Positions 12,714 to 50,096 of a DNA stretch of 64,000 nucleotides are shown here, piece after piece. The notes under the pieces are model-generated. The model was not told where the DNA came from. It saw only the letters and a list, made by a program, of their open reading frames with translations, and did no database searches. Origin of the DNA: Bacteroidota bacterium (GTDB taxonomy: Bacteria; Bacteroidota; Ignavibacteria; UBA10030); NCBI GenBank assembly GCA_035499415.1, contig DATJYV010000029.1:589-64588 (forward strand), read 5' to 3'. The position numbers were made by a program, and so were the translations under genes. Within the stretch, counting starts at the first letter, position 1. Each line of letters opens with the position of its first letter.

Positions 12714-12882
12714 GATATCTCTCCTGTGGATGATTGATGTTCGGATACATTACCACACTCTGTACTTCCACTCGAACTGCTCCGGATCACCTCCCTTCCG
12801 CGTTTCTCCGATGGATCGGTTCATGGATATCGTTGATTAGATTCGCTTCATCTTGGGAATTATTCCATGCGTCGACGATCGG

Positions 12883-32886: not shown

Positions 32887-32890
32887 GTTG

Positions 32891-34197: not shown

Positions 34198-37100
34198 CCG
34201 CGCGCTCCTGGCGGCGGGTTTTTTGCGCCCGACGACTTTCAGGCTGAGATACATGAGGAAGAGCGAAGTCACGGCTGCGGAGCCGAAAATGGCGATAGCC
34301 GTCGTCGACCACAGGCTTGTCACGTTGATCCCGTAGGAGAACTCGCCGCCGACTTCAATCTCCACCGAATGTTTTCCGGCCGGCAGGAGGAGACTGTAGC
34401 AATCATTCCCCTTGAGCACGGTCGGACGGACGGACTGGCCGTCGATCGTGAGGCCGGTCGGCTCGGCGTTGAGCGATACGATAGCACGGGGGCCGGAATC
34501 GTAGACCAGCGACGCGGAACGCATACCGTATGAGACGAACTCGAGATTCCCGGTGAACGACATGATCCTCGTTTGGAGTGCATGAGTGGAGAACGCACCC
34601 GCAGCGCCGGCTGCGAACCGGACTTCATGTTTCCCTGCGGGAATGAGGTACTCATTGTCCCGGAACGGCGAGAGGATGGCGCCGTCGACCGAGATCTCGG
34701 TGACCGTTCGGGGAAGCTTGAGATTGAAGGACGTGGGGCTCTCGAAATCATAGCCGGCGGCCGTCGGACTCGAGACGACGCGGCTCGCGGCGGCATACGG
34801 AAAGAACATCATGTCCTGCGGGTTGACTGTTTCTTCGCAGTAAATGGTAAATTTCCGGGCGCCCATCGAAGCCGCACGAACGAGCTGATAGCTTTCGACG
34901 CCCGTTTGAATGAGCGTCGGGAACGGCGTAACGACATCCTTCTTCCGGAAGCTCAGGATGTTGAGGTCGAGAGAAAGCCTGCTGCTGTCGCTCACAAATT
35001 TTTGATACATCGCCCCCATCGAAGCGTAGCGCGACGGATCCGTCGACCACAGCTTCTCCGGGTCTTCGACCTGCAGGATGAAGCCGTATTTATGCTGAAG
35101 CCGGATGATCTCCGACATGTCAGCGCCGTAATATTCCCGGAGTTCCGGCGAACCGAAGCTGTCCATGCCGGTCACGATCGTCTGGAACCCGGGCTTTGAC
35201 GCGGCCACATCCTGTGCCATCTTCAGCAGAATCTCGTATACTTCCGTGAGCTTCCCAACCCGATAATCGTCGACTTCCTGGCGCACTGCCGTGTTTTCGC
35301 GCCAGTAATAGAGTGAGCTCGGGTCGAAGATCTTCACAAGGTCAATCCCGTATTTCTTGCGAAACTCTCTCTGCGCGGAAGGATGCATCGGCGCGAACAC
35401 CCGCGGGTCCTCGTACCCGCGGCCTCCCTCGAAATAAAGCTCGGCGATGTTCACGCCGTCGAAATCGTACGCGAGGAGAAGTCTCCGGTACTCATCCGTC
35501 GCAGCTTCCACACACCGGGGGTCCGTCAGCGCCATGGCGTAACGCCACATCGGCGCGGCATCTTCCCCTTTGTAATTCTTTTCCCTCCATTCGGGATGCT
35601 GGTTCCAAAACTTCTGGCTCACCTGCGGCGGTTCGAGCCACGCATAGACAAGGATCCCGTTCGCGTGCGCGACGCGAATGAGCCGGCCGTAGTCGTACGT
35701 GTATTCCCGGTATTCGCGCAGCTTGGGATAATCGTGCCAGCCGGCAACATGCACGGCCCTGATTCCCTGGCCGACCCATCGCTTGACGAGGGCCTCAATA
35801 CTGTACGTCTGGCGAAGTCCGGGGTCGAAGAAGAAATCGAGCCCGTTGCGACGCACCACCGGACGAAGCCGAAAATACGACCGGACGTATTCCACGAAAT
35901 AAGGGTAGTGGGAATATCCTTCCTGTGACGTCGGGTCGAATCGGGCTCCAAGGAAGAGCACCTTTCCTTTCCCGTACCTCTTGCCGATGGCAAGAGGCGT
36001 TTCCGACTGTTCGTCCGAACAGAACGTCTCGTCCACCTCGTCCGCGTCGAATTTGTGGACGAGCTCCCAATTGCGCCAGGCGACGGGTTCCTCGGGGAAG
36101 AGATGATCCTCGACATGGAGGATCCTCTGCGTCGTTTGCACGTAGTGGATTCCGAATTCCTCCGCAAGGTCGTTCTTTCCGTCTGTCACGAGGTTTCCAC
36201 CGTCACGAACGAACTTCGTGATCGCGTCGTACTGCTCGTCCTTGAGCGAATCGACACTGCCGTAGGGGACGATGAGAAGATTGTAGCGGGCGAGGTTGAG
36301 GTTCTGGTCCGCGAAGATCGTATCGACGCGCAGGTTGACACTCCGGAGCGCGGAGACGAACGACGCCTGGTCGTTGTACGCCGCCCCTTTGACGTGATAG
36401 TCCCACAACACCGCCGGCCGCGCTTCCTGCCAGTCCTGGTCCGACTGAAACACGGTTTCGACCGCCCGCTCGGCCCGGTGGAAGACCTTTTCTGCGAGCG
36501 TCGCCTCGTGTTCATGGAACTCGGTCGGTTCGGCTTTGTAGAACTCCCCGGGGTTCAGGGTGATATGTTTCGTGATGGCCCCTTTGAGGCGGACGTCGGA
36601 TACGATACGCTTTGTCAATTCGCCGTTCGTATCAAAGTAGGCCTCGAGGAGATATTGGTCGTCGAGCGTGATCGTATAATCCTGGGTCCCCGCCAGAATC
36701 ACCCGGTCTTTGGTCTTCACCCATTGCTTCTGCTCCGTCAGGTCGGCAAATGTATATCCCAATTTTTCGATCCCTTCGACAAGCTCGTCGAGCAGGTCGA
36801 GGTCGAGAAACGAATGAAAGAAGCAGGCCGCGTATCCGTCCCGGACGTAGAGGTTCGCCTTCGCCCCCCGGATAATGTCCTGAACCGCCCGGCGGCTCAC
36901 ATTTTTATCTGCGTCGAGCGGCACGTAGCCGAGATTCTCCGGGTAGATTCGCTGGCCGTAGATGTCCTTCTTGATGACGTACGGGAACATCTGACTGTAC
37001 TCGTAGTTCTCGATCGCCAGGCGCTGTTCCATCGCAGAGCTGAAGTATTTTGCTATCGTGCGGTAGAGCAAAGTTGAAGCCGTGTAGTGCGGCGTCTCCC

Positions 37101-39318
37101 ACAGGAGCGGATAGATTCCGTTCCGCATGCATTCCTGAATGCCGAGTTCCACTTTCTTTGAAATCCACTCCGCGGATTCATCCCGCACCGGTCTGTTGGT
37201 GCTCTCGTCCCAGAACTCAAAATCAGTGGCGGTGATCCCTTTGTACTGATGCGTGATGCCGTGCAGGACGATCGTCGCGCCGTTCTTGACCATGTATTTG
37301 AGCGCATCGACAAGCTCCGGCTTGTCGGAGAGACTGACTCGAATGCCCTGGAAGGGGTCGACGTAAAACGGGATGACGCCGACAAGAAACGGAATCCCGC
37401 GGCTCGAAAGATGGTCAGCGACATCGCGAAGCTTGTTGGGGTCATCAAGGGGAGAAACGTCTTCAATGCGGATCAGTGCAGTGTGGGACTCCTCGTGCTG
37501 TTCGTGGAGGATGTCGTGGAGCATGTCCGCAAAAAGAAGGTAGCGATCGGTTTCCGTCGCCGAGGCAAAAGGCGAATCGGCCCAGTACATGAGATTCCCC
37601 GCCTGGATAATGTACGGAATCTCGACCCGCCGACGGTTCGAGTACGCCGTCCCGAGCACACGCGCACGCCGCCGGTTCAGGACGGTGACAAGGTTTGCGT
37701 TCGGTTCCCCTTTGGTGAACGTCTTCCCCTGGTAACGGACGACATCGTAAATGCTGACCGAATCGAGCTCCGTCACCTCGAAACCGTACTGTCTGCGGAC
37801 CCGCTGCGCGCGGCTGAATTCGGCGAAGCCGGTGTTCATCCAGATGACGGGCTTCGTCGTTTGCAGGATATCGTTCGTGAATTTTTCCGGCACCGGATTT
37901 ACGGCATTGAACCCGATGTAGAACGTGTAATCGAACCCGTTCATTTGCCCCGGTACATATTGATTGACGCCGATGACGACGTTGGACGTGTTGAAATGTC
38001 CCAGGAGCTGTTGCAGTTGCCGACCGTCCCCCATCGCGAGGTTGTTCAGGTCCGAGTTTCCTTCGACGACGACGAGCACGTGCTTGGGCGCATCCGGCGC
38101 CGCCCGCATCGGGCCAAAGAGGCCGCACAGAGACAAGCCGAGGGCGAGGACGATCTTGCGAATGCGCCGAGACGGACGGAATTCGCTCACTCTTCTGTTC
38201 GATAGCCCGAGATGCTTCTTGATGAACCCCGCGATCCGTTCGGCTGCGCGCCCATCACCATAGGGATTGACGGCCGACGCCATTTTCGCATACGCGGACC
38301 GGCTTTCAAGGAGTCGACGGGTTTCCCGGACGATTCGCTCCCGTGCGAGCCCCACCAGCCGTACGGTCCCGAAGTCGACAGCTTCGGGCCGCTCCGTGAC
38401 ATTTCGGAATACCAGAATGGGTTTTCCCAACGCCGGCCCCTCCTCCTGCACACCGCCGGAATCTGTCAGGATGAGGTACGAGCGCGCCATGAGGTTTACG
38501 AAGTCTTTGTAATCAAGAGGTTCGATGAGGATGATGTTCGGAATTCCGTCGAGGATCGGATAGACCGTTTCACGGACAAGAGGATTAAGATGAACCGGAA
38601 AGACAAAAAGATGGTCGCCGAACCTGGCCGCAATCTGCTTGACGGCCCGGCACGCCCCCTCCATGGGCGCTCCCCAGTTCTCACGCCGATGCATGGTCAA
38701 CAGGATGATTCTACGTCTGCTGGCAACCGCTTTCCGAACCGCCGCGCTGCCGAATTCGTGGTCGGCGCGCACCGCGAGGTTCAGCGCATCGATGACGGAG
38801 TTTCCGGTCACGTGAATCCGGTCCGGGTTGATGTGCTCACGCAAGAGCGCGCGCCGCGCGGTCTCGGTTGGAGCGAAGTGAAGGTCGGCCAACGCGCTCG
38901 TGAGCCGTCGATTAATCTCCTCCGGAAAAGGGTTCGCCTTGTCCCCTGTGCGCAAGCCGGCTTCCACGTGGCCGACCGGAATGCCACGATAAAAAGCGGC
39001 GAGACTTCCGGCAAACGTCGTTGTCGTATCGCCCTGGACAAGTACCATGTCGGGGTGCTCGCTCTGAAGCACCGGGTCGAGTGCGGCAATTGTCCTCTCC
39101 GTGAGGGCTGCGAGCGTTTGCCGGGGCCGCATGATATTCAGATCGTGGTCGGGGTGGATTCCAAAAACATCCAAAACCTGGTCGAGCATGTGACGATGTT
39201 GGGCCGTGGCGATCGAAACCACCGAAAACAGTTTGGGCTCTTCCCTGAGCCGGAGAATGACTGGTGCGAGCTTGATCGTATCCGGCCTGGTGCCGAATAT
39301 GACGGCGATTTTTCTCAC
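34192..39318 (-). CDS. 1708-aa multidomain membrane protein: UDP-GlcNAc 2-epimerase (WecB-like) - TM - polysaccharide-deacetylase-like (DUF2334/CE4-like) - GATase1/ThuA-like - TIM-barrel glycosidase-like - beta-sandwich domains - C-terminal TM
   Basis: GTG start. Residues 1-375 carry the non-hydrolysing epimerase motifs HVEAGLRTGD and DSGGVQEE. A TM helix (IVLALGLSLCGLFG) follows. Then come IRIEDVSPLDD and LHGITHQY (deacetylase-like), NLLIVPYGSV...DGGNLV (ThuA-like), and GIRAVHVAGWHDYP...ILVYAWLEPP...FDGVNIAELYFEGG (glycosyl-hydrolase-like TIM barrel). The C-terminus has Ig-like repeats and a TM (AIAIFGSAAVTSLFLMYLSL). The antisense ORFs were rejected. Confidence 0.7.
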   Translation of the reverse strand: MRKIAVIFGTRPDTIKLAPVILRLREEPKLFSVVSIATAQHRHMLDQVLDVFGIHPDHDLNIMRPRQTLAALTERTIAALDPVLQSEHPDMVLVQGDTTTTFAGSLAAFYRGIPVGHVEAGLRTGDKANPFPEEINRRLTSALADLHFAPTETARRALLREHINPDRIHVTGNSVIDALNLAVRADHEFGSAAVRKAVASRRRIILLTMHRRENWGAPMEGACRAVKQIAARFGDHLFVFPVHLNPLVRETVYPILDGIPNIILIEPLDYKDFVNLMARSYLILTDSGGVQEEGPALGKPILVFRNVTERPEAVDFGTVRLVGLARERIVRETRRLLESRSAYAKMASAVNPYGDGRAAERIAGFIKKHLGLSNRRVSEFRPSRRIRKIVLALGLSLCGLFGPMRAAPDAPKHVLVVVEGNSDLNNLAMGDGRQLQQLLGHFNTSNVVIGVNQYVPGQMNGFDYTFYIGFNAVNPVPEKFTNDILQTTKPVIWMNTGFAEFSRAQRVRRQYGFEVTELDSVSIYDVVRYQGKTFTKGEPNANLVTVLNRRRARVLGTAYSNRRRVEIPYIIQAGNLMYWADSPFASATETDRYLLFADMLHDILHEQHEESHTALIRIEDVSPLDDPNKLRDVADHLSSRGIPFLVGVIPFYVDPFQGIRVSLSDKPELVDALKYMVKNGATIVLHGITHQYKGITATDFEFWDESTNRPVRDESAEWISKKVELGIQECMRNGIYPLLWETPHYTASTLLYRTIAKYFSSAMEQRLAIENYEYSQMFPYVIKKDIYGQRIYPENLGYVPLDADKNVSRRAVQDIIRGAKANLYVRDGYAACFFHSFLDLDLLDELVEGIEKLGYTFADLTEQKQWVKTKDRVILAGTQDYTITLDDQYLLEAYFDTNGELTKRIVSDVRLKGAITKHITLNPGEFYKAEPTEFHEHEATLAEKVFHRAERAVETVFQSDQDWQEARPAVLWDYHVKGAAYNDQASFVSALRSVNLRVDTIFADQNLNLARYNLLIVPYGSVDSLKDEQYDAITKFVRDGGNLVTDGKNDLAEEFGIHYVQTTQRILHVEDHLFPEEPVAWRNWELVHKFDADEVDETFCSDEQSETPLAIGKRYGKGKVLFLGARFDPTSQEGYSHYPYFVEYVRSYFRLRPVVRRNGLDFFFDPGLRQTYSIEALVKRWVGQGIRAVHVAGWHDYPKLREYREYTYDYGRLIRVAHANGILVYAWLEPPQVSQKFWNQHPEWREKNYKGEDAAPMWRYAMALTDPRCVEAATDEYRRLLLAYDFDGVNIAELYFEGGRGYEDPRVFAPMHPSAQREFRKKYGIDLVKIFDPSSLYYWRENTAVRQEVDDYRVGKLTEVYEILLKMAQDVAASKPGFQTIVTGMDSFGSPELREYYGADMSEIIRLQHKYGFILQVEDPEKLWSTDPSRYASMGAMYQKFVSDSSRLSLDLNILSFRKKDVVTPFPTLIQTGVESYQLVRAASMGARKFTIYCEETVNPQDMMFFPYAAASRVVSSPTAAGYDFESPTSFNLKLPRTVTEISVDGAILSPFRDNEYLIPAGKHEVRFAAGAAGAFSTHALQTRIMSFTGNLEFVSYGMRSASLVYDSGPRAIVSLNAEPTGLTIDGQSVRPTVLKGNDCYSLLLPAGKHSVEIEVGGEFSYGINVTSLWSTTAIAIFGSAAVTSLFLMYLSLKVVGRKKPAARSARR

Positions 39319-39476: not shown

Positions 39477-39938
39477 TTACTCGGTGACCGTGTAGATTAT
39501 CTTGGGCGTTTCCTGTCCGAGGGTCGACCGGGGAAAATCATAGTCGACATCGATGGTACGGGCCGAAGAGGCATCGCCGCCCGGCGAGAGCGTAATCGAT
39601 TCCCCGCGGGCGACCAACTGTTGAACCGTGACGGTTTGCATTGATGTCCGGGTTTCAACCGTCATGCGCTGCGAGGTGCCGCGATCCAAATCAGCCGTGA
39701 CCTTTGTGGATTGGGAGGGTGACCCTTGAAGCTCGAGAGATGCCCGAACGCCTTCCACAGCGCCGGAGCCCGCAAGCGGAATTGCCCGGGCGTTGCTCAG
39801 AGGGTTGATGACGAGCCGATGAGAGATGCTGACGCCGAAGACCACCTGCTGAACTGCTGAAGAGCGGACCTGACCGTGCGAATCCTGGACGATTCCGGCG
39901 GTTAACATGATCAAGAGTATGGATTTTCGGCAGCTCAC
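39477..39938 (-). CDS. Small secreted Thr/Ser-rich protein, fimbrial-subunit-like (family member 1)
   Basis: 153 aa. N-terminal signal-like segment. C-terminal beta-strand IIYTVTE. 1-nt spacing to the neighbouring gene. Confidence 0.4.
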   Translation of the reverse strand: MSCRKSILLIMLTAGIVQDSHGQVRSSAVQQVVFGVSISHRLVINPLSNARAIPLAGSGAVEGVRASLELQGSPSQSTKVTADLDRGTSQRMTVETRTSMQTVTVQQLVARGESITLSPGGDASSARTIDVDYDFPRSTLGQETPKIIYTVTE

Positions 39939-39939
39939 G

Positions 39940-40497
39940 TTAGTCCGTCAAAGTCAAGGTTACGAGACGTTCGTCTCTGTCGATTCCACCGACGCCGGAA
40001 CCTGCGACAAAGGTGTATCGGATCGACTGGTCTCTGTCGCTCCCCCTGCCGATCCCGGTCACGACATCAACAGGTACGAGGGCCGCTGAAATGTCGACAT
40101 CGCCAACGCTGCTTGCGCGTCCCGACGCGAGGTTGATCTTGAGCCGGGTTCCACTCGGCATGCTTGAGTTGATCGAGGCAACGATTTTCACATTATCGAG
40201 ATTTGTCGCTATGCTGTATTGCGAATGCTGGTCGGAAACGCTTACGTCTTCGCCCGCGTAGACCTTTTGCACCATGAGAGGCGCAGGATTTCCCGTCACT
40301 CTCAGCACTGCTATCGGCCGGACCTCGACCGTTACGATCTGCTTCACGGAGCTGTGAATCGGCTGCGGGAATGCGACCGAAATGATTGACAGGAGGGAGA
40401 GCCCTATGAACGGAAGTCTCGTCAAGGGATGCGATCGATGAGGCAAGAACGCTAAAGATGAAGCGATTGTCAAGTTTGCAATTGGCGCCGGTGGCAT
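39940..40497 (-). CDS. Small secreted pilin-like subunit (family member 2)
   Basis: The C-terminal half (...SVGDVDISAALVPVDVVTGIGRGSDRDQSIRYTFVAGSGVGG..RLVTLTLTD) parallels the 46205/46758 paralogues. The signal peptide is LPFIGLSLLSIISVAFPQ. The start is an ATG (MPPAP) or a TTG further in. Confidence 0.45.
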   Translation of the reverse strand: MPPAPIANLTIASSLAFLPHRSHPLTRLPFIGLSLLSIISVAFPQPIHSSVKQIVTVEVRPIAVLRVTGNPAPLMVQKVYAGEDVSVSDQHSQYSIATNLDNVKIVASINSSMPSGTRLKINLASGRASSVGDVDISAALVPVDVVTGIGRGSDRDQSIRYTFVAGSGVGGIDRDERLVTLTLTD

Positions 40498-40681
40498 GTT
40501 CGATCTTGGGCGAATCATGACCACAGGAAGGACAACAACCATGCCCTCCCGCCAGCTCACGCCGCGAAGGAGCAACGTCGATAACTAATTGCCAATAAGG
40601 ATGTTGGAGAGAGGTGATTCGAAGGGCTGGAAGATGGAGGGATGATCGAATTGTAGTTTCTACAATTCCACAGCTATCAGC

Positions 40682-43600
40682 TCACTGCTCGTGCCCTACT
40701 GACTTGCAGATAGCTTCAGCGGCAGCGCGCGTATTGAATTTCCCGGTAATGACCCGGTAGCGAATCCCAAGGTTGGGGATGTTCACTCGGTCGACAAAGA
40801 CTTTGCGTCCCAGGATCTTTCCCATATGCGACCCTTGGGACTGTGCCTTGGCGCGCGTTTTCCAGGACGATATTTGGACCATAAACTTCTTTGAGGGCCT
40901 ATCGAAGAATATAAGGCAAGGACCGGGCTCGTCCATCTGCGCCTTCGGCTCCTTGACTTGTTCCTGGGGAGCAGGTTGCGGCGCGTTCTCGGGTTTTTCC
41001 GGTTCTATCACCCCTTGCTGGATGATTTTGATGATCCGTTTGCGTGGTAGAATTTTGAAATCGCCCTCCGCGTGAGTTCCGGCCTTCAGCTCCAGGGCAA
41101 GCGAATCCGGTTCCATGCGATGATAGTCGGGAATATCCCCCCCTTCAATTCTGAGTGTCCAACTTCCGGGTCGCAGGTCCCCGAAAACGTACCTCCCGCG
41201 ACTGTCCGTCACGCGTCTGTGAACCTCATCCCCCTGGTATAACGCCATGAAGACTCCGGCCCTTGCTTCCTTCTCGCGATACACCGTTGCACCCAAGGAA
41301 TCCGAAGGTGCCTCCTCGTTCACTTCATACAAAACGACGGTCCCCGATACCTGCGCACTTCGTGTGACGTTGATCTGAACAGGCGTTTCCTCTCCCCCAC
41401 GTACCTCGACTTCGAGCGGCATCGGCTGGAGCGTCACGCGGTCGAGCCCGATGCTCTCTTTGTCGACCTGAACATAGATCGGCCCCGGTTTCACGCCCGG
41501 CAGGTAGAATTCTCCGTTCCCGTCGGTCACTGAAGCCGATTCTCCCGCGTTCACGAGAATATTGGGCAAGCCCACTCCCGTCTCGCCGACGACCCGGCCC
41601 CGCAACGACCCGACCGATCCAATGCGGGCGATGGGGACGTTCAACGGAATGGCATATTCAAGAAGATATGCCGTTTCGCGCGGCGTCACCGCCGGCGTGA
41701 GAAGATTCTGCCGCGCCCGGAGCGTGATCTTGTGGTTGAAGGGGAAAATATGTTCAAGCGAGAATTCGGACAACGTGCTCGTTTGTGGCGTTGCACTGTT
41801 CACCCTGCTGCCAAAAATGTTGAATTGGACCTGCGTCGCCTCCCCAAAAAGCACCCATGCCGATAAGCTGGCCGAGAGCCGCTCTTCTACTTCTCCCGTG
41901 TAAATATCCTGGTCGTTTGAGTACTCGACGGAAGCGCTGTAGTTCTGCGCGGCCGTAGGACGCACCGACGAGAATAGGGATACGTGCTGGTATGGATAAT
42001 TCTTCAGCGCGAGCTTGTCCTCGATGACGCCGTATTCGGAATTCCCGTTGATACTCACGCCGGCGAAATTGAAACCGACCCGCATCTGAAACGTGTTTTC
42101 GCTTCGCCGGTACTTCGGATTTTCCAGCAGATCATCCTGTCCGTCGTAGTGGTAGTAGAAGGACACAAGGTCAAAGTACGAAAGGCCAAGCTGGTAGAAT
42201 TGGTCGCGGGGAGCGTATATTTGATTCGTGTCGCGCGCAAGATTCCGTTCTTCGTCCCGAAAATAGGTTTCGAGCCGGATCGTCTTCGAGATTTGATACG
42301 AAATGCTGCTTGATTTGAAGCTCAGGTCGCGGTAGTATCCTCCGAAGTTCGTCCCTGCATCGATATACCGGATATCGTAGGCGAGCGACGGCTCTGTGCC
42401 GTTGAATCGGAGGGCAACTGCGTCATCGCTCTTCCCTTCCATGGCACCGCGGCCGTATTCGACGTCGACGCTGGAGTTGGTGAATGGATGCGACAGTCCC
42501 CGTAACGTGTAGAGGTCGCTCGAGTATTGATCCCTTCGGTTGAGGTAGTTGGCGCCAAGCTCGTAATCGGGGGAAAATTGATAGCTCACGAACCCTCCGC
42601 CTTCATCCTGCCGCTGGTCGATCCATCGGGTTTTGTCGTACAATCCTCCCACAGAGAACCCGGCGACCGTCGTTCTTGCGCCCGCCCCTGTCGCAAACCG
42701 TCCGCTCTCGGTCAGGGGAGAAAGCGTATAGTTCATGTCCCCGAGCTGCAGTTCCGTCGCACTGTTCACGTACGACAGGTAATATTCATCACGCAAGCCC
42801 AGAGAGGAAATCGATTGCGTCTCCGGTCCCCGCGCGAGGAATGAAAATTTGTCGTCCCGTTTCTCTGACAGACTCCCATAGCCGGATACTTCGAACTGCG
42901 TGGACCGCGCATCCTGCTCGCCCACACCCCGAAGCTTGAGCTGAATGGGATACTCTACGAACTGTTCTTCTCCCTGCGATTCCTGGGAAACAACGTCGGT
43001 CACGACCGAGGCACTCACGGCAACCGTGGAGTCCTGCCTCGAAGTCGCGATGAGCTGAAGGGTTTGATGGACTTTTCCCGCCCCCTTGTCCGTTACGACG
43101 GAGACCGGAATTTCGCGCGTGTCGCGCGGATTGAGTGCGATAACGGGGTCCGGGACCTTCGTCGCGTATCCCTCCGAAGACCTGGCTTCAAGGGTTACCG
43201 TCACCGGAGTGTTTCCGGCGTTCGTCAGGTCGAACGTTGCCGTAAAGGACCGTCCCCCAATGACAAATCGGGGCGCGTCGATGGGTTCGATTTTCAGGAG
43301 GTAAATCGTCTCCACTTTCACGGTTATCTCGGCAGCGGCCTCGTGCGCGGGCGTTGCACGGTCTTTCGCCAGATACCGGAGACGATAGAGTCCCCCCGGT
43401 ACTTCTCCGGGAACTGCAAGGGTCAGAATCCGCGCGTCGTTGGCGCCGGCTTCGAGCGTGAACTGCGACTCGGGAGTCACCAGCCGCCACTTCGTCGGAA
43501 CCTGTACCTGGGGGTCGAAGGTCTGCGTGGAGCCGGTTCGATTCGTGACGACCACGCTGAAGGAAACGATTGAGCCCGGCTTGACCGACAAGATCTCACG

Positions 43601-43732
43601 CGTCCCCGGAACGACGTCAATCTCCCCCTGCGCGCGCGAGAGACGCAGCTGACCGGTCATTGCGACCGCGAGCCCCAGAAAAAAAAACATCCGGCCGTGT
43701 CTGACCGGATGATGTCGTGTCGGTCTCCTCAA
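40682..43732 (-). CDS. Large outer-membrane, usher-like assembly protein: N-terminal Ig-like (CARDB-like) domains, central beta-barrel-like region, two CarbopepD_reg-like domains, C-terminal SPOR peptidoglycan-binding domain
   Basis: 1016 aa. TTG start with a charged n-region, or ATG at M15. The central aromatic-alternating strands are GLSYFDLVSFYYHYDG and FQMRVGFNFAG. GRVVGETGVGLPNILVNAGESASVTDGNGEFYL and VSGTVVLYEV..VTDSRGRYVFGDLRPGSWTL are transthyretin-like folds. The C-terminal FMVQISSWKTRAKAQS...YRVITGKFNTRAAAEA is a SPOR motif. The printed sequence appears 1 nt short somewhere within this gene (the track length is a multiple of 3, hand-counting is not). Confidence 0.55.
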   Translation of the reverse strand: MRRPTRHHPVRHGRMFFFLGLAVAMTGQLRLSRAQGEIDVVPGTREILSVKPGSIVSFSVVVTNRTGSTQTFDPQVQVPTKWRLVTPESQFTLEAGANDARILTLAVPGEVPGGLYRLRYLAKDRATPAHEAAAEITVKVETIYLLKIEPIDAPRFVIGGRSFTATFDLTNAGNTPVTVTLEARSSEGYATKVPDPVIALNPRDTREIPVSVVTDKGAGKVHQTLQLIATSRQDSTVAVSASVVTDVVSQESQGEEQFVEYPIQLKLRGVGEQDARSTQFEVSGYGSLSEKRDDKFSFLARGPETQSISSLGLRDEYYLSYVNSATELQLGDMNYTLSPLTESGRFATGAGARTTVAGFSVGGLYDKTRWIDQRQDEGGGFVSYQFSPDYELGANYLNRRDQYSSDLYTLRGLSHPFTNSSVDVEYGRGAMEGKSDDAVALRFNGTEPSLAYDIRYIDAGTNFGGYYRDLSFKSSSISYQISKTIRLETYFRDEERNLARDTNQIYAPRDQFYQLGLSYFDLVSFYYHYDGQDDLLENPKYRRSENTFQMRVGFNFAGVSINGNSEYGVIEDKLALKNYPYQHVSLFSSVRPTAAQNYSASVEYSNDQDIYTGEVEERLSASLSAWVLFGEATQVQFNIFGSRVNSATPQTSTLSEFSLEHIFPFNHKITLRARQNLLTPAVTPRETAYLLEYAIPLNVPIARIGSVGSLRGRVVGETGVGLPNILVNAGESASVTDGNGEFYLPGVKPGPIYVQVDKESIGLDRVTLQPMPLEVEVRGGEETPVQINVTRSAQVSGTVVLYEVNEEAPSDSLGATVYREKEARAGVFMALYQGDEVHRRVTDSRGRYVFGDLRPGSWTLRIEGGDIPDYHRMEPDSLALELKAGTHAEGDFKILPRKRIIKIIQQGVIEPEKPENAPQPAPQEQVKEPKAQMDEPGPCLIFFDRPSKKFMVQISSWKTRAKAQSQGSHMGKILGRKVFVDRVNIPNLGIRYRVITGKFNTRAAAEAICKSVGHEQ
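43678..43687. repeat. Homopolymeric A9/T9 tract inside the 5' end of the usher-like gene (codons FFF)
   Basis: cagAAAAAAAAAcat on the plus strand, i.e. ATG TTT TTT TTT CTG on the coding strand. Unusual in a 60% GC genome. Coordinates approximate. Confidence 0.8.
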
Positions 43733-43741
43733 GGCAGTCTT

Positions 43742-44569
43742 TCAAAACTTCAGGACGTACTCTGCGCCGAAAATGTCGTCCCCTCCCGCATCGACCACGA
43801 CGCGCGCCTTGTAATTGCCGGGGGTGACGCTGCTGACGTCGATCGTCTGCCGCACGGATGTCCCTGGATAAATGCGGTATTTTACTCCCTCGAATTTACC
43901 GCGCGCAACCCCTTTCTCATCGAACAAATCGACGGTGACATCGGGACGCATGACGAGCTCCCCCGTATTTTCAATATCGATCTGGAGCGCCCTCTTCCCT
44001 TCTTCCTTCGCAACCAGCTTGGCGCCGATGAAATTAACTTTCTTCGTGCCGGTGTTCGCAATCGACGTGGCGATCTGGATCCCGTACCGGATCGTCTGCA
44101 TGATCCCCATCTGCGCCTTCGTGTCCTTTTGTCGAAGGGAAGACTCGGCGGAGCCCTTCTGAATTCCCTCGACCATCAGCATGCTCCAGTAGGTTCCAAT
44201 CAGGGGCTTCCCTGTCAGATCCTTGGGGACAGCCACCGAATAGTCGATCGCCATGGTGGACGCCGGCGGCAGGGTCAGGTAGGCGGGGCTGAAGGTCACC
44301 CACTTTGCGTTCGAGCGGGGCATCGACCCGGGATCACCGTAGTTATTCGTTCCGGAATAATGAAACGTGTAGTCCGTTTGATAAACCTTCGCTTCCTGCG
44401 GCTCGTTCGTGTCGTTCCGGATGATGATTGAACCCGTATACGTTTCGCCAGGCCTCGCCATCTTGTCCTGGCTGAGCTCGCCGATGACCGAAACTTGTCC
44501 CAAGAGAAAATTCGGGACAAGGAAAAGGAAAAAGAGGGCTGTTCGTTTGAGGAGGAGGGAGAGAGTCAT
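43742..44569 (-). CDS. Periplasmic Ig-fold protein, candidate chaperone-like partner of the small subunits
   Basis: Signal peptide MTLSLLLKRTALFFLFLVPNFLLGQ (the longest ORF starts at 44647). Two beta-sandwich-like halves. The N-terminal I.I.N....P pattern is reminiscent of PapD-like N-domains. Same reading frame as the usher-like gene, separated by TGA plus 3 codons. Confidence 0.35.
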   Translation of the reverse strand: MTLSLLLKRTALFFLFLVPNFLLGQVSVIGELSQDKMARPGETYTGSIIIRNDTNEPQEAKVYQTDYTFHYSGTNNYGDPGSMPRSNAKWVTFSPAYLTLPPASTMAIDYSVAVPKDLTGKPLIGTYWSMLMVEGIQKGSAESSLRQKDTKAQMGIMQTIRYGIQIATSIANTGTKKVNFIGAKLVAKEEGKRALQIDIENTGELVMRPDVTVDLFDEKGVARGKFEGVKYRIYPGTSVRQTIDVSSVTPGNYKARVVVDAGGDDIFGAEYVLKF

Positions 44570-44576
44570 AATGTTC

Positions 44577-45029
44577 CTATTGAGCGACGAGTGTGTAGGT
44601 GATTGTATGGACATCGTTGCCGAGTTCGGCGCTGTTGCCTTGTTCAAATGTTGCCGATGCGGAGTACTTCAGGGTCGCTGTGGCATTCGTTGTCCCCGTG
44701 GCGGGGATGTTCGTGATGAAATCGGCGGCAGCCATTCCGTTCGTCAATGTCACGGCAGGGGACGCAACTCCTTTCGTCGGACTCACGGCAACCACAGAAA
44801 GCGAAAAACTCTGGCCCGAGCAAACGGTTGCCACAGTGACCTTTGAGATGGCCGTTTGCTTCTTGTATGTCAAGGTGCAGGAAGAATTTGTCACAGCGGC
44901 GGGTTCAGAGCCCGCGACTCCGGTAGTTATAGAGAGCGTCTTATTACCTCCGGAAATGCTGATTTGTTGAGCTGAGGCGCTTGACAGAAGCAATGCGACT
45001 GCGGGTAAGAGGAGCAAGAGCTTGTGCAC
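44577..45029 (-). CDS. Small secreted pilin-like subunit (family member 3)
   Basis: GTG start gives the signal peptide MHKLLLLLPAVALLLSSASAQQ (the longest ORF starts at 45143). Two Cys. C-terminal strand HTITYTLVAQ. Confidence 0.45.
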   Translation of the reverse strand: MHKLLLLLPAVALLLSSASAQQISISGGNKTLSITTGVAGSEPAAVTNSSCTLTYKKQTAISKVTVATVCSGQSFSLSVVAVSPTKGVASPAVTLTNGMAAADFITNIPATGTTNATATLKYSASATFEQGNSAELGNDVHTITYTLVAQ

Positions 45030-45033
45030 GGCT

Positions 45034-45537
45034 TTATTGGGTCGCGATAGTGAACGTGATCGTGTGCGAATCCGTCCCCGTTCCCTGGGAGGCAAGGGCA
45101 ACGGCAGTATATTGGAGCGTGCAACTTCCTGTGCTTCGGCCAAGATTGGTCAGAAAATCCTGGGCGGTGTGTGTGATGGTGACCTGGGAAGCTGCGGTCC
45201 CGACCGTGGGGTTCAGGGCAACGAGTTTGAGTGCAAAGAGTTGTGTTGTCAGATTCGTTTGCACCGTAACCTTTTTGGTACTGCTGTTGATGCCCCATTG
45301 GAGGGATGTTGCCTGGTTAGTGGCGCTCATGGTGTTCTGGCCCGCCACGGCGTTGGCCCCCGTAATTGTGAAACTGACTGCGCCTCCGGTTACCGTCACG
45401 TTGGTAATCGTCGAAACCGTGACCGTGATCGTGTGGGACGCTGATCCATACGTCTGACCCTTGGCAAGAAACAGAGGAAGGATGAAAAATATCCCCAGCA
45501 ATATCGGGCGGTTGAATCGAGGTCGAAGGGATCCCAT
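45034..45537 (-). CDS. Small secreted pilin-like subunit (family member 4)
   Basis: Signal peptide MGSLRPRFNRPILLGIFFILPLFLAKGQ. Thr/Val-rich strands. C-terminus SHTITFTIATQ. The SCTLQYTAVALASQG motif is shared with member 5. Confidence 0.45.
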   Translation of the reverse strand: MGSLRPRFNRPILLGIFFILPLFLAKGQTYGSASHTITVTVSTITNVTVTGGAVSFTITGANAVAGQNTMSATNQATSLQWGINSSTKKVTVQTNLTTQLFALKLVALNPTVGTAASQVTITHTAQDFLTNLGRSTGSCTLQYTAVALASQGTGTDSHTITFTIATQ

Positions 45538-45610
45538 ATATTCGCGAAACACGTTCGGAGCCGGTGAAATATAGCCCTCTAATCGAGGATTATCAAGTTG
45601 AGACAGTGCC

Positions 45611-46120
45611 TCAACTCCCTGTAATAGTATACGTAATCGTATGCGTCTCGCTCCCGACCCCCTTTTCAAGGGTTGCGGCCCCCGTGAATTGAAGCGTGCA
45701 GCTTCCCGCCGAGCGACTCACCCCAACGATGAGGTCGTGAGTCGAGTTGTCAGAAAACACCACGTCGCTCGAACTGACCCCCGACCCTGAACTGACGTCC
45801 TGGGCCGACAAGCGAAGGTCGAATTTTGAACCCGACCGATCGCTTTCGGCCGTAATCTTTCGATTCTCCCCGTTACTCGTCCAGACCAACCTGGTAGCGC
45901 CGCTCATCGCGGGCGAAGGGTTGGAAGTTTCCGGGTCGAAATCGGTGATCTTGAGCGTAACCGGACCGCCTGAGATATCTATCGTGTTCAGTTCGAGGAC
46001 TTGAAGCCGAATCACCTGCGTGACCGAAGCACGCTGGGCGAAAAGTGTTGCGGACCCTGCTGCGAAAATCAGGAGGGTCTGCAGTGCTCTTCGTCTTATG
46101 TCGTGTCGTTTGGTGTTCAT
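45611..46120 (-). CDS. Small secreted pilin-like subunit (family member 5)
   Basis: Signal peptide MNTKRHDIRRRALQTLLIFAAGSATLFAQ. SCTLQFTGAATLEKG motif. C-terminus THTITYTITGS. Confidence 0.45.
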   Translation of the reverse strand: MNTKRHDIRRRALQTLLIFAAGSATLFAQRASVTQVIRLQVLELNTIDISGGPVTLKITDFDPETSNPSPAMSGATRLVWTSNGENRKITAESDRSGSKFDLRLSAQDVSSGSGVSSSDVVFSDNSTHDLIVGVSRSAGSCTLQFTGAATLEKGVGSETHTITYTITGS

Positions 46121-46204
46121 CGCTCGAGGCCTCGAAGATAGAAAAACCGTAGCGGCGACAGCTGGAAAACGCACGCTACGGCTTTCTCTCTCCTCCAGAG
46201 ATTC

Positions 46205-46705
46205 TTAGTTCGTCAACGTTAAGGTGACTACTTTTGCTGTGGATGAAAGCGTACCGGCAGAAGCGTTCGCACCGAATGAGTAGGTGATCATCTGGCCGGC
46301 ATCCGCGCCTCTGTTGATACCTGTAACGACGCTCAAAGCACTGCCGGATGTTGCGTTGGAGATATCGACCGCTCCGGCGCTGGTCCCTTTGGAGCTTGCA
46401 AGGTTAATCGAAAGCGAGTAACCGGACGAAAGGGCGGCATCGAGATTCGCCGTGATCTTCACCGTATTCGCGTAGTTCTGCGTGATGCTGTAGGTCGTTG
46501 AATTGTCCGTGACGCTCGTGAGGTTATCCGATCCAGGAGTTCCGGTCGTGATCGTGAGGGCTCCCGGGTTTCCCGACGTCGAGATCTTGTAGATTGCGTT
46601 GACGGCGAGGTTCAGATTCTGCGTTGCCGTGGCTTGTGCGACTGCCGACTCGACGAGCAGAGAGCTGGCGGCGACAAGCGCGAGGGTGATGATGGTCTTT
46701 TTCAT
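46205..46705 (-). CDS. Small secreted pilin-like subunit, candidate major subunit (paralogue A)
   Basis: 166 aa. Signal peptide MKKTIITLALVAASSLLVESAVAQA. The mature N-terminus ATATQNLNLAVNAIYKIS has an alternating donor-strand-like pattern. C-terminal VVTLTLTN. About 75% identical to the next gene. Confidence 0.5.
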   Translation of the reverse strand: MKKTIITLALVAASSLLVESAVAQATATQNLNLAVNAIYKISTSGNPGALTITTGTPGSDNLTSVTDNSTTYSITQNYANTVKITANLDAALSSGYSLSINLASSKGTSAGAVDISNATSGSALSVVTGINRGADAGQMITYSFGANASAGTLSSTAKVVTLTLTN

Positions 46706-46757
46706 GATGGTATCCGTTCGATGAAGGTTGAGGTTTGGTGGTTTTTCAATTCGGTTG

Positions 46758-47252
46758 TTAGTTCGTCAGCGTCAACGTTACGGTCTTGGCCAGCGATGAC
46801 AATGTTCCGGCAGAAGCCGTTGCGGCGAAGTTGTAGGTAATGACCTGGGCTGCATCCGCACCGCGCTGAATGTTCGTGACCATGTTGACGGCGCTGGACG
46901 ACGTCGCATTGGAGATGTCGACACTTCCCGCACTCGTGCCTTTGGTGCTCGCAAGGGTCAACTTGAGCGTATAACCAGCAGCAAGGGCTGCGTCAAGGTT
47001 CGCCGTGATCTTCACAGTATTACCATAGTTCTGTGTAATGCTGTAATTCGTTGATGCATCGGAAACGGACGTCAGGTTGTCGCTCCCGGCTGTGCCTGTC
47101 GTGATCGTGAGCGGGCTCGGGTTGCCGGACGTCGCTATTTTGTAAACAGTGTTGACTGCAAGCGTGACGCTCTGAGTCGCAGTGGCCTGAGCCAGCAGAG
47201 TCTGAACTCCTGCGAAACCGAGAAGAGAGAGGGTTGCGATTAACTTCTTCAT
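46758..47252 (-). CDS. Small secreted pilin-like subunit, candidate major subunit (paralogue B), first gene of the operon
   Basis: Start trimmed to MKKLIATLSLLGFAGVQTLLAQA, preceded by an AAGGAG RBS. The mature ATATQSVTLAVNTVYKIA...TVTLTLTN parallels paralogue A. Confidence 0.5.
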   Translation of the reverse strand: MKKLIATLSLLGFAGVQTLLAQATATQSVTLAVNTVYKIATSGNPSPLTITTGTAGSDNLTSVSDASTNYSITQNYGNTVKITANLDAALAAGYTLKLTLASTKGTSAGSVDISNATSSSAVNMVTNIQRGADAAQVITYNFAATASAGTLSSLAKTVTLTLTN

Positions 47253-47379
47253 GACGAACTCCTTTTGTCTGGATTGGTGGATCGTTTTGTTTCCCGTATA
47301 ACCATCAATCCCCATGCCAATCCAGTTTTTGAACGAAAAATGGCGTTTTCCCAGATACGATTTGTTTTTCGTGAATTGA

Positions 47380-47399
47380 AATGATACATTTGTATCATT
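47380..47399. promoter_or_regulatory. Perfect palindrome AATGATACA-tt-TGTATCATT in the divergent promoter region
   Basis: Read directly in the AT-rich spacer between the pilin-like operon (minus) and the HisKA/sigma54-activator genes (plus). Candidate enhancer or operator site for the adjacent sigma54 activator. Confidence 0.4.
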
Positions 47400-47551: not shown

Positions 47552-47567
47552 TGGCATATCGATTGCT
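47552..47567 (+). promoter_or_regulatory. Sigma54 (-24/-12) promoter TGGCAT-N5-TTGCT
   Basis: cTGGCATatcgaTTGCTg gives the exact GG-N10-GC spacing. It lies about 36 nt upstream of a GGAGG RBS and the ATG at 47603. Confidence 0.55.
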
Positions 47568-47602: not shown

Positions 47603-47893
47603 ATGGCGCAGAGTAAGCTCAGAATCATGTCTCCGGAAGAAGCGGTACGGGAGTACCATGTTCGGACAGAAATCGCGACCCGGTTGTCGCACGAGTTCCG
47701 GACTCCGCTCACTTCCATCATCGGCTACGCAGAGACCATCATGTGCAGTCCGGACTTAACAGCAGAACAGCGAGACGAGTTTGCAGCTCTTATAAAGAAG
47801 GAGGGGGAACGGCTCGTGAGACTTGTGACCTTGATTGTCGAACAATCGATTCAGGGTTCGGCGTCACAGTCCGATCCATCCATATTTAAATGA
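47603..47893 (+). CDS. Free-standing HisKA (DHp) domain protein, 96 aa, with no ATP-binding domain
   Basis: MAQSKL...RLSHEFRTPLTSIIGYAETI carries a canonical H-box with the phospho-acceptor His, and the protein ends after the four-helix region. The longest ORF (from 47477) has no RBS. The stop lies 20 nt before the activator gene, in a different frame. Confidence 0.55.
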   Translation: MAQSKLRIMSPEEAVREYHVRTEIATRLSHEFRTPLTSIIGYAETIMCSPDLTAEQRDEFAALIKKEGERLVRLVTLIVEQSIQGSASQSDPSIFK

Positions 47894-47912: not shown

Positions 47913-49298
47913 ATGCCATCAAACCATCTCATATATATTGTCGACGACGAGACATCCATCGCCAAGCTGCTGGAAGTCTGGGTCAGCCAGAAATGGGGGT
48001 ACCGAGCGCGGCTCTTTTCGGACGGCGAAACGTGTCTTCATGCCCTCGATGAGGGGGCGGACCTGGTTCTTCTCGACCTGATGCTGCCCGGTATCGATGG
48101 TGTCGCCGTGCTCCAGGAAATCAAGCGCCAGAAGCCGGAGCTTCCTGTCATCGTGCTGTCCGCCCAGGCAAAGATCGAGGTTGCCCTTCAGACATTGAAA
48201 TTAGGCGCAACGGACTATTTCAGCAAACCCGTTGACCTCCCGAAGCTCGAAATCGGCATCAAGAATGCCCTGCGACTTGCGGACTTGACGCGGGAAGTCG
48301 AGCGTCTTCGTCAAGACGCCGAAACGAAGGTCCACTTCGATCATATTGTGGCCCAGAGCGGCGAGATGGCTGACGTTTTCAAGCTCGTCTCAAAGGTCAA
48401 GGAGAGCGACATTCCGGTACTTATTCTCGGCGAGAGCGGAACCGGAAAGGAGCTCATCGCCCGGGCCGTCCATTTCAACAGCGGCCGCAAAGACAGACCG
48501 TTCGTTGTCGTCAACTGCGCTTCGATTCCCAAAGACCTTCTCGAAAGCGAGCTCTTCGGGCACGAGCGTGGAGCGTTCACCGGCGCCATCCAGCGCAGGG
48601 TCGGAAAATTCGAACAGGCAAACGGAGGGACGATCTTCCTCGACGAAATTGGGGAGCTCGACCTGAGCCTGCAGTCAAAACTCCTGCGGGCGATTCAGGA
48701 AAAGCAGTTCAACCGAGTCGGGGGGAATGATGTGATCACGACGACCGCGCGTCTTATTTCCGCGACAAACCGGGATTTGCGTGAGGAAGTAAAGCAGAAG
48801 CGATTCCGGGAGGATCTGTACTTCCGTCTCTCGACGTTTCCCGTCATGCTCCCGCCTCTCCGGGAAAGAAAGTCGGATATCGTCCTTCTTGCCGAACACT
48901 TTCTGCGGCAGTTTTCCGAGGAGCAGAAGAAACCCCACCTGCGGTTTTCACGAAAGGCGCTCGACGACCTTTACAACTACCCGTGGCCCGGAAATGTGCG
49001 CGAGCTGGAGAATGCAATCCAACGGGGCGTCGTCCTTGCCGACGCGGCGGAATTGACCGAGCGCGAACTGCCCCTCTCAGTCCAGACATATTCGGGGTTT
49101 GAATCGACGGAGCGTCCCGCATTTTCGTTCGCCAAGAGCAACGACGTCGTCGTCCCTTTCGAAAAGTTGAAGGAGGACGCGATAAGGAACGCGCTGCGCA
49201 TCACCCACGGGAACATCGTCCAGGCGGCCCAACGCCTCAAGATCGGCCGGGCGACGCTTTACCGCTTGATGCAAAAATACAAAATCGAGGCGGACTAG
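47913..49298 (+). CDS. Sigma54-dependent response regulator (NtrC family: REC - AAA+ sigma54-interaction - Fis-type HTH)
   Basis: REC with LLDLMLPGIDG. Walker A GESGTGKE. GAFTGA motif (ESELFGHERGAFTGA). C-terminal HTH (IVQAAQRLKIGRATLYRLMQKY). Start trimmed to MPSNHLIYIVDDE (the longest ORF starts at 47835). Confidence 0.85.
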   Translation: MPSNHLIYIVDDETSIAKLLEVWVSQKWGYRARLFSDGETCLHALDEGADLVLLDLMLPGIDGVAVLQEIKRQKPELPVIVLSAQAKIEVALQTLKLGATDYFSKPVDLPKLEIGIKNALRLADLTREVERLRQDAETKVHFDHIVAQSGEMADVFKLVSKVKESDIPVLILGESGTGKELIARAVHFNSGRKDRPFVVVNCASIPKDLLESELFGHERGAFTGAIQRRVGKFEQANGGTIFLDEIGELDLSLQSKLLRAIQEKQFNRVGGNDVITTTARLISATNRDLREEVKQKRFREDLYFRLSTFPVMLPPLRERKSDIVLLAEHFLRQFSEEQKKPHLRFSRKALDDLYNYPWPGNVRELENAIQRGVVLADAAELTERELPLSVQTYSGFESTERPAFSFAKSNDVVVPFEKLKEDAIRNALRITHGNIVQAAQRLKIGRATLYRLMQKYKIEAD

Positions 49299-49367: not shown

Positions 49368-50096
49368 TCAGGACCAGGAACCCGTGCCCGTCTGGGTTCC
49401 CTCTGAATTGTAGACAGTCCATTGGCCGGAACCGTTTGCGACCCAGGTTGCCTTGAATACGAGAACCGCGTTATTGTACACGTCTACTTCGCCCGTCTTG
49501 TCCGACCGATTGATGACGATAAGCTTCGCGGTCACCGAACTCCCCGTCGCATCGTACGTCGAGAGGGTTCCTGTTTCGCTCGTCACAGATCCGTTCACCC
49601 CTGCTGCCCAGACATAGTCGGCGGCAAGAGTTGTCGCATTGTCATTGTAGACCTTCCATTCACCGCTCTTACCGTCCGCGCTGGACGTACCGTTGAGAAA
49701 TGTCCAATTGTTGTACGTCACGCCGCTGCCGGTCTCCGTCCCGTTCACCGACCACTTCCACGCATAGCTCCCGTCCGACTGCTTGGTCGCGGTGAATGTT
49801 ACGGTGACCCCGTTCGCCGTGACCGTCCACGTCCACACGCCGCCGTTATCCTTTGCCGAGCCGGCAGCAAATCCCGCAAAAAATGCGGACGAATATGCAT
49901 TCGCCGAGAGTGCGTACGAAGTCGTTAACTCCGCATACGTGTCTGTCGATGTGGTTGTCGGCCCGACAAATGTCACGCTCGGTATGCCGGGAGCCGTCCC
50001 CGTGCTCGATGTCGGCGATGAGCTGTTCTTCGAGCAACCCGAAGAACAAACTGCAATCGCAAGAACGGTAAAGCCGTAAAGAATTGATCGTTTCAT
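49368..50096 (-). CDS. Lipoprotein, Thr/Ser/Gly-rich beta-rich, unknown function
   Basis: Signal peptide plus lipobox (AIAVCSSGC). 242 aa. Repeated W/Y-containing strands. Confidence 0.45.
   Translation of the reverse strand: MKRSILYGFTVLAIAVCSSGCSKNSSSPTSSTGTAPGIPSVTFVGPTTTSTDTYAELTTSYALSANAYSSAFFAGFAAGSAKDNGGVWTWTVTANGVTVTFTATKQSDGSYAWKWSVNGTETGSGVTYNNWTFLNGTSSADGKSGEWKVYNDNATTLAADYVWAAGVNGSVTSETGTLSTYDATGSSVTAKLIVINRSDKTGEVDVYNNAVLVFKATWVANGSGQWTVYNSEGTQTGTGSWS

Follow-up and report, generated by a model that had tools for sequence, protein, structure and literature searches.

The window analysed here, a 64,000-nucleotide stretch of contig DATJYV010000029.1, comes from a soil metagenome-assembled genome (MAG) of Ignavibacteria type labelled 'Bacteroidota bacterium'. 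It carries a nine-gene locus, g1 to g9, that encodes seven small secreted proteins, a secreted immunoglobulin (Ig)-like protein (g6) and a large outer-membrane protein (g7), and that probably specifies a machine for assembling surface fibres. The nine open reading frames (ORFs) all lie on the minus strand, head to tail, between 39477 and 47315, as reported in a first-pass annotation made from the sequence letters. Its coordinates were those of maximal ORFs; the starts used here are likely start codons, taken together with public gene calls for identical contigs, and fall at 47252 (g1), 46120 (g3), 45537 (g4), 45029 (g5) and 44569 (g6). The g1 start is the second ATG of its ORF and has an AAAGGAG ribosome-binding site. 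The spacers, described earlier as 1-10 nucleotides (nt) or overlaps throughout, are indeed 4-9 nt at g4/g5, g5/g6 and g6/g7, but measure 52-84 nt among g1, g2, g3 and g4. The genes are listed below, with E-values against the family hidden Markov model (HMM) introduced in the next paragraph and lengths in amino acids (aa).

46758-47252, minus strand: g1, major-type subunit, 164-aa precursor, signal peptide followed by ATATQSVTLAVNTVYK; HMM E = 3e-51
46205-46705, minus strand: g2, major-type subunit, 166 aa, 71% identical to g1
45611-46120, minus strand: g3, minor subunit with N-terminal extension; HMM E = 4e-43
45034-45537, minus strand: g4, minor subunit with N-terminal extension; HMM E = 6e-46
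44577-45029, minus strand: g5, subunit without N-terminal extension, two Cys, candidate tip or initiator; HMM E = 1.5e-38
43742-44569, minus strand: g6, secreted two-domain Ig-like protein, 275 aa, candidate periplasmic chaperone
40682-43732, minus strand: g7, usher-like outer-membrane protein, 1016 aa
39940 to ~40425, minus strand: g8, subunit paralogous to g1 and g2, downstream of g7, start uncertain (maximal ORF to 40575); HMM E = 3e-48
39477-39938, minus strand: g9, divergent small secreted protein, probable distant family member

The small proteins comprise six secure paralogues and one probable one. BLASTP joins g1 to g8 (E = 1e-29), g3 to g4 (2e-19) and g3 to g5 (2e-9), and a g1/g3 match at 3e-6 with composition correction connects the g3-g4-g5 group to g1; g8 is 38% identical to g1 and g2. 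An HMM trained on 142 unrelated representatives of the family finds g1-g5 and g8 with E-values of 1e-38 to 1e-54. It does not match g9, which is linked to the family solely through its positional equivalents in two related loci (L028 and L017; related loci carry L numbers), both of them family members (phmmer E ~1e-3). Where all seven had been called pilin-like, the description thus holds securely for g1-g5 and g8, and g9 is marginally related. The family is large: a profile of the seven mature proteins retrieved 1,471 clusters at 50% identity with E <= 1e-3, of which 704 reached E <= 1e-10, all of ~150-190 aa. Scans of Pfam and NCBIfam returned nothing for the subunits in the window, and a Pfam scan of the 142 diverse relatives gave scattered single weak matches with no family recurring consistently. 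Fimbrial, SCPU and other pilin families were absent from the window proteins and from the families listed for the 142 relatives (the top 25 of 52). The subunit profile had no match among PDB sequences, and hhalign gave no signal against FimA (probability 0.4%).

Public gene calls for identical contigs omit g5 and place an antisense ORF of 123 aa there instead (44599-44970, plus strand), and a collection of 15 billion proteins held no start-codon variant of g5.

An AlphaFold2 prediction for mature g2, made with 55 sequences including paralogues, yielded an all-beta model of eight strands with residues 1-16 unstructured (predicted local distance difference test, pLDDT, 84.6; predicted template modelling score 0.75). 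One of five models was confident and the other four were poor (40-58), so we regard the prediction as usable and not robust. Its best fold neighbours in the PDB, found with Foldseek, are mostly subunits of fibres built by donor-strand exchange. Chaperone-usher pilins of the CFA/I-CS1 class lead the list, which also includes FimA/F/G/I, the pilin domains of FimH and PapG, PapA/E/H/K, EcpD, CsuA/B and Caf1, as well as the chaperone-free DUF1102 tubes, CanX cannulae, Saci_0406 threads, AbpA and TasA. The subunits thus appear, on this model, to have an Ig-like pilin-type fold resembling that of donor-strand-exchange subunits. The incomplete Ig-like fold postulated in the first-pass annotation was borne out to the extent that the model is an all-beta sandwich, neither helical nor repeat- or amyloid-like.

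Other readings of the small proteins were set aside. Lipoboxes and type IV prepilin motifs are absent from all nine proteins, as first noted, and no C-terminal sorting domain of the type IX secretion system (T9SS) was matched in Pfam or NCBIfam at E <= 1 across the nine. Type V pilins of the Bacteroidota kind are ruled out by the missing lipobox Cys, type IV pilins by the missing G/FTLIE prepilin motif and the all-beta g2 model, and T9SS cargo by the missing sorting domain. Cysteines are less regular than had been described (none, or a single pair): g1, g2 and g8 have none and g5 has two, but g3 and g4 have one each, and the single Cys of g9 lies within its signal peptide.

Over the 142 relatives the mature N-terminus reads T-A-T-Q-T-V-T-V-x-V-x-P-I-x-E-I-x-V-S-G, with hydrophobic positions in strict alternation, and the C-terminus follows the consensus [RH]-T-V-T-[LYF]-T-[LIV]-T. 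In the window, the mature N-terminus and all the C-terminal endings are as originally quoted (TLTLTN twice, TYTITGS, TFTIATQ, TYTLVAQ, TLTLTD and IIYTVTE). Mature g5 starts with QQISISGG and, in the alignment, lacks a 17-residue N-terminal strand, the missing segment being exactly the stretch that AlphaFold leaves unstructured in g2. Genes without this segment are concentrated at one position. Of the subunit genes that directly precede the Ig-protein gene in related loci, 34 of 78 lack it, compared with 5 of 164 at other upstream positions and 2 of 45 downstream. Relatives with two domains (342-422 aa; loci L005, L048, L057 and L075) have an extra N-terminal domain followed by the pilin domain, and their match to the family profile starts only past the N-terminal segment.

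In chaperone-usher pili such as Fim, Pap and Csu, subunits at the distal tip either lack the N-terminal extension or have an added N-terminal receptor domain. By analogy, g5 and the two-domain relatives carry what looks like the signature of this tip-subunit logic. One two-domain relative stands out by its composition. Locus L005, in the Acidobacteria MAG GCA_012729555.1, has after its barrel gene a gene (12795-14063, plus strand) for a 422-aa protein. An extremely Gly-rich region (Pfam Gly_rich_2) takes up its first 290 residues, and its last 125 form a pilin domain that lacks the N-terminal strand; the protein is a candidate tip adhesin.

The large protein g7 has Pfam matches to Ig-like domains of the NEW3/FixG_C type (residues 50-240), two CarboxypepD_reg domains (709-870) and a SPOR domain (946-1011), and nothing in 250-700. 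An AlphaFold2 model built from 18 sequences is confident (pLDDT 83.8, all five models 76-84) and fills that gap. A signal peptide and two beta-sandwiches (38-249) are followed by ~26 long consecutive strands (258-703), two further beta-sandwiches (708-896), a disordered Pro/Gln-rich linker and the SPOR domain. The beta-barrel that the first-pass annotation presupposed in the 1016-aa protein is therefore predicted with confidence, with periplasmic beta-sandwich domains on both flanks. An even number of strands places both ends of the barrel in the periplasm, which fits a C-terminus that binds peptidoglycan. Within the barrel region, residues 284-350 are highly conserved.

Searched with Foldseek against the PDB, the g7 model found full-length FimD first (E = 3e-13 to 5e-11 over ~750-800 aligned columns), and nine of the top 10 matches that aligned on the barrel were full-length FimD. 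The PapC pore scored 2e-7, and AlgE, Occ porins, LptD and MtrB scored 5e-7 to 7e-6. Template modelling scores in this search were low (0.26-0.38). The model thus combines the features of an usher, namely a periplasmic N-domain, a large barrel and two C-terminal beta-sandwiches. On this basis the predicted architecture of g7 is usher-like, with homology unproven. Usher (PF00577), PapC_N and PapC_C gave no match at E <= 1 in g7 or 17 homologues, hhalign against FimD gave a probability of 0.1%, and a g7 profile against PDB sequences returned generic Ig-like or transthyretin-like domains and no usher. The homologues are 26-46% identical and vary in their interchangeable C-terminal peptidoglycan-binding module (40682-40900 in the window), which is SPOR in 15 of 18, LysM-like in P0136 and missing from the Acidobacteria proteins (the homologues include P0136-P0138).

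The N-terminal part of g7 offers further observations. The Ig-like domains at 38-249 (~42986-43621) match ASH/PapD-like Ig arrays in Foldseek (hydin, CFAP65 and the SPD-2 domain of CEP192) and weakly match Cep192_D3, HYDIN_VesB_CFA65-like_Ig and DUF1573 in Pfam. Most homologues conserve the motif RHxPVRxxRIFF before the core of the signal peptide (43690-43732, minus strand), an unusual n-region for a signal peptide. The same coding stretch contains a hairpin and T9 run at 43711-43688.

The Ig-like protein g6 has a Sec signal peptide and neither a lipobox nor a membrane anchor. It is strongly conserved (62-74% identity among the 120 listed of 798 homologues, compared with the 26-46% of g7). Its N-terminal half resembles fn3_5 below threshold in 43 of 45 homologues (best E = 4e-6) and WxLIP_PGBD (DUF916), also below threshold, in 34 of 45 at E <= 1 (best E = 2.7e-4); g6 of the window itself scores 13.7 bits against a WxLIP_PGBD cut-off of 27.3. 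ASH/PapD-like and TcfC E-set domains match in a few homologues, CARDB gives a weak match to the C-terminal half, and between the two match regions lies the invariant amphipathic stretch QMGIMQTIRYGIQ. No PDB sequence matched g6. It does not seem to be a free copy of the g7 N-domain, since hhalign found no real similarity between g6 and the Ig-like domains of g7.

Peptide patterns from g6 led to relatives in 214 species-representative genomes, and the best 80 loci were examined. In all 80, the genes run on one strand in the order of one to six subunit genes, the Ig-protein gene (~272 aa), the barrel gene (900-1200 aa) and zero to two further subunit genes. The g6 gene is always directly upstream of the barrel gene, and a subunit gene follows the barrel gene in about half of the loci. 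The smallest version, in Acidobacteria, is an operon of a subunit, an Ig protein, a barrel and a two-domain subunit. Because the same gene order recurs in every one of these loci, the nine-gene arrangement is far beyond chance.

Carriers are mostly MAGs of Ignavibacteria type. Other MAG labels are Rhodothermales, Gemmatimonadaceae, Pirellulales, Phycisphaerae, Verrucomicrobiota, Bacteriovoracaceae, Zixibacteria, Thiodiazotropha and Deltaproteobacteria/Thermodesulfobacteriota/Syntrophales, and Acidobacteria were reached through g7. The suggestion that the pathway belongs to the Fibrobacterota-Chlorobiota-Bacteroidota (FCB) lineage therefore falls: with carriers labelled Acidobacteria, Planctomycetota, Verrucomicrobiota, Gemmatimonadota, Deltaproteobacteria/Thermodesulfobacteriota, Bacteriovoracaceae and Zixibacteria, the spread is clearly beyond the FCB group, though MAG labels can err. 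Wherever source names were seen for the three components, they read 'hypothetical protein'. Searches of the accessible literature for chaperone-usher or donor-strand systems of these phyla turned up no description, although one may still exist.

What, then, does the locus make? We consider it probable that it encodes a pilus assembly machine that works on the chaperone-usher principle with families that cannot be recognised by sequence. The proposal of an undescribed donor-strand fibre system is supported in its core by the subunit fold, by the barrel and by the missing homology to known families, none of the components having sequence homology to a characterised chaperone-usher family in Pfam, NCBIfam, the PDB or hhalign comparisons.

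In the mechanism that we propose, the seven small proteins, which have signal peptides, would be exported by Sec, and g6 would hold them in the periplasm by strand complementation, a role suggested by its position, its conservation and its weak resemblance to WxLIP, which is predicted to donate a strand to its partner. The N-terminal 15-17 residues of a subunit, lying outside its own Ig-like fold, would serve as a donor strand and complete the subunit that follows. In the g7 model, both the Ig-like domains at the N-terminus and the two C-terminal beta-sandwich domains lie in the periplasm, where they would recruit g6-subunit complexes, and the SPOR domain would tie the pore to peptidoglycan. 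There g7 would catalyse exchange with the N-terminal strand of the following subunit while extruding the fibre through its barrel. In such a fibre, g5 may initiate at the distal tip, g3 and g4 may act as adaptors, g1 and g2 may form the bulk of the shaft, and g8 and g9 may be late or terminating subunits.

Several points weigh against the pilus interpretation. Every carrier is an uncultured MAG; polymerisation, surface location and strand exchange are what we infer; and no sequence link to any usher or pilin family was found. The Ig-like fold and chaperone role suggested for g6 draw on sub-threshold Pfam matches, gene position and conservation. At E <= 1, neither PapD_N nor PapD_C matched g6 or 45 homologues, and hhalign of g6 against FimC gave a probability of 0.2%. 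A plug domain is likewise missing from the g7 model, in which no gap between barrel strands exceeds ~13 residues and so no plug-sized insert can be placed; a hairpin-type gate may be present instead. As all sequence-based tests for usher, chaperone and pilin failed and no plug is apparent, we keep the locus out of the known alpha to sigma clades.

The locus nevertheless shares several features with the classical pili (type 1 Fim pili, with FimA/FimC/FimD, and P pili). In both, a major subunit comes first, followed by minor subunits, the periplasmic protein, the pore and further subunits; the subunits are Ig-like with a detachable N-terminal strand, and the tip subunits lack the strand or have an extra N-terminal domain. 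The pore proteins share the order of periplasmic N-domain, large barrel and two C-terminal beta-sandwiches, with FimD as the best Foldseek match of g7. Unlike the classical systems, the components here have no sequence similarity to the Usher, PapC_N/C, PapD_N/C or Fimbrial families. The barrel has ~26 strands and no visible plug, whereas the classical usher has 24 strands and a plug inserted between strands 6 and 7; two Ig-like domains replace the single small N-domain; the C-terminal domains are of CarboxypepD_reg/transthyretin type; and a SPOR (or LysM) peptidoglycan anchor is added. Control by sigma-54 is another difference from classical chaperone-usher pili. The class 5 (alpha) pili CFA/I, CS1 and CS17 show 11-16% sequence identity with no significant family match, and are four-gene operons of enteric pathogens, unlike the locus here. 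From the archaic (sigma) pili, such as Acinetobacter Csu and the spore-coat-U (SCPU) systems, it differs in that the Pfam families listed for the 142 representatives do not include SCPU, in the lack of a conserved Cys pair, and in that the usher and chaperone families were not detected.

The strongest competitor to the pilus interpretation comes from Gram-positive bacteria. In the WxL clusters of Firmicutes, a WxLIP with two Ig domains is predicted to insert a strand that makes up the incomplete beta-sandwich of the WxL protein it partners, and the clusters encode both small proteins and large ones whose C-terminus carries the shared domain (PMC10599100). The locus could accordingly be a non-filamentous surface complex, a diderm counterpart of the WxL/Csc clusters, in which g6 permanently stabilises the small proteins by strand complementation, g7 is an export pore only, and single proteins or short oligomers are displayed on the outer membrane or peptidoglycan. 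The layout is the same (small single-domain proteins, large ones with a C-terminal shared domain and a two-Ig-domain partner), and the N-domain of g6 resembles WxLIP_PGBD consistently, in the 34 of 45 homologues noted above, always below the Pfam threshold. We nonetheless consider this unlikely. The WxL clusters are monoderm and have no outer-membrane pore. Neither WxLIP_HBD nor DUF3324 matched the g6 homologues, and g6 appears to have no C-terminal transmembrane helix of the WxLIP kind, since it ends ...AEYVLKF, beta-strand-like and with no hydrophobic tail. The subunits lack the WxL motif (g1 and g2 contain no Trp at all), the Pfam families listed for the 142 relatives do not include WxL, and the best fold matches are fibre subunits. 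A detachable donor-like strand on six subunits that is absent from one, moreover, is only sensible for head-to-tail polymerisation.

Donor-strand fibres that dispense with a chaperone would offer a second route to a filament. Here the subunits would assemble themselves outside the cell in the manner of TasA, archaeal threads or cannulae, all of which figure among the fold neighbours of g2; g7 would be a passive channel, and g6 would plug that channel or bind peptidoglycan or polysaccharide. We judge this quite improbable. TasA, archaeal threads, bundling pili and cannulae occur in monoderm bacteria or archaea and have no dedicated periplasmic partner or outer-membrane pore, whereas in a diderm cell unfolded or incomplete subunits would have to pass the periplasm. 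Further, few genes of the operon are as conserved as g6, which invariably adjoins g7, and the top fold matches of g2 are the chaperone-usher pilins of the CFA/I-CS1 class.

Still less credible is a module for export of exopolysaccharide or matrix, with g7 as the polysaccharide pore and the small proteins as glycan-binding or matrix proteins that work with the epimerase-deacetylase fusion and glycosyltransferase family 2 (GT2) synthase encoded next door. Those genes are not beside the locus in any other species examined, known polysaccharide pores have 16-18 strands, and both the subunit family and the logic of its N-terminal extension would go unexplained. A functional amyloid of curli or Fap type, with the Thr/Ser/Ala/Asn-rich proteins forming cross-beta fibres nucleated at the outer-membrane pore, is highly improbable given that BLAST and visual inspection found no internal imperfect repeats, the g2 model is a globular beta-sandwich, Pfam shows no curlin or Fap matches, and g3, g8 and g9 are not low-complexity.

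Upstream of the pilus genes, the window has the following features, which point to regulated expression.

47304-47319, minus strand: sigma-54-type promoter TGGCATGGGGATTGAT, ending 52 nt upstream of the g1 ATG
47380-47399: perfect palindrome of 20 base pairs, AATGATACA-TT-TGTATCATT, between the two promoters; candidate activator-binding site
47552-47567, plus strand: second sigma-54-type site TGGCATATCGATTG, 36 nt upstream of the regulator operon
47603-47893, plus strand: 96-aa HisKA protein (dimerization and histidine phosphotransfer domain only, no ATPase domain; Pfam HisKA only), divergent from the fibre operon
47913-49298, plus strand: sigma-54-dependent response regulator (REC, AAA+ and HTH_8; Pfam E = 5e-70)

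The first ATG of the maximal g1 ORF (to 47315) falls within the promoter and is a spurious start. The pattern TGGCAY-N5-TTG occurs at only two sites in the window, at 47319-47304 on the minus strand and at 47552 on the plus strand. In 37 of 61 related loci the looser form GGCAY-N5-YTG lies close to the first subunit gene, compared with 74 of 800 random windows that contain it; in these loci the promoter typically reads TGGCACG-N4-TTGA, and loci of the delta type have the canonical TGGCACGCCTATTGCT. An orthologue of the response regulator lies upstream of the fibre operon in ~30 related loci, and a HisKA gene adjoins the locus in ~27, the L007 kinase being full length with HATPase_c. The palindrome is weakly conserved (similar in 7 of 57 related loci vs 14 of 860 random windows), and a terminator scan revealed no attenuator after the major subunit genes. 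We suggest that the fibre operon would be transcribed from the sigma-54 promoter, driven by the divergent two-component activator, an activity read from sequence patterns. The regulator pair has a sigma-54-like site of its own at 47552, suggesting autoregulation.

Directly downstream of the locus (31795-39318, minus strand) are genes for a 1708-aa fusion, a GT2 synthase-type glycosyltransferase and a hybrid kinase/receiver. The fusion joins a UDP-GlcNAc 2-epimerase, DUF2334, a GH42M-like domain and a C-terminal hydrophobic segment. These genes are probably an exopolysaccharide module, and a link to the fibre locus was rejected because they do not accompany it in the other species. On the far side of the regulators (49368-50096, minus strand) is a gene for a 242-aa probable lipoprotein rich in Thr, Ser, Gly and Trp (N-terminus ...AIAVCSSGCSK), for which no family matched; only in L052 does a homologue adjoin the fibre locus.

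Textbooks treat chaperone-usher pili as organelles of Proteobacteria, and reports of them from other bacteria are sparse. If the pilus interpretation is right, the same operating principle is used across many phyla by a system whose three components are all invisible to Pfam and NCBIfam. We raise more tentatively the possibility that the locus represents a so far unrecognised, phylum-spanning class of donor-strand pili, either a very deep branch of the chaperone-usher systems or an independent invention of them, with a partner related to WxLIP and not to PapD, and a plug-less, peptidoglycan-anchored usher analogue of ~26 strands. Although we regard this larger claim as doubtful, such a class, if real, would place the WxL surface complexes of monoderms and the chaperone-usher pili of diderms in a single evolutionary series. 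In g7, with its extra Ig-like domains, its peptidoglycan anchor and no obvious plug, and in the WxLIP-like g6, the system would also offer natural variants of usher and chaperone that bear on how strand-exchange machines evolved and how wide pores are gated, and the linkage to a sigma-54 two-component system provides a handle for inducing it. Confirmation would give a name and a testable function to ~1,500 subunit clusters, and would reveal what abundant bacteria of soil and sediment probably use as a major organelle of adhesion or biofilm formation.

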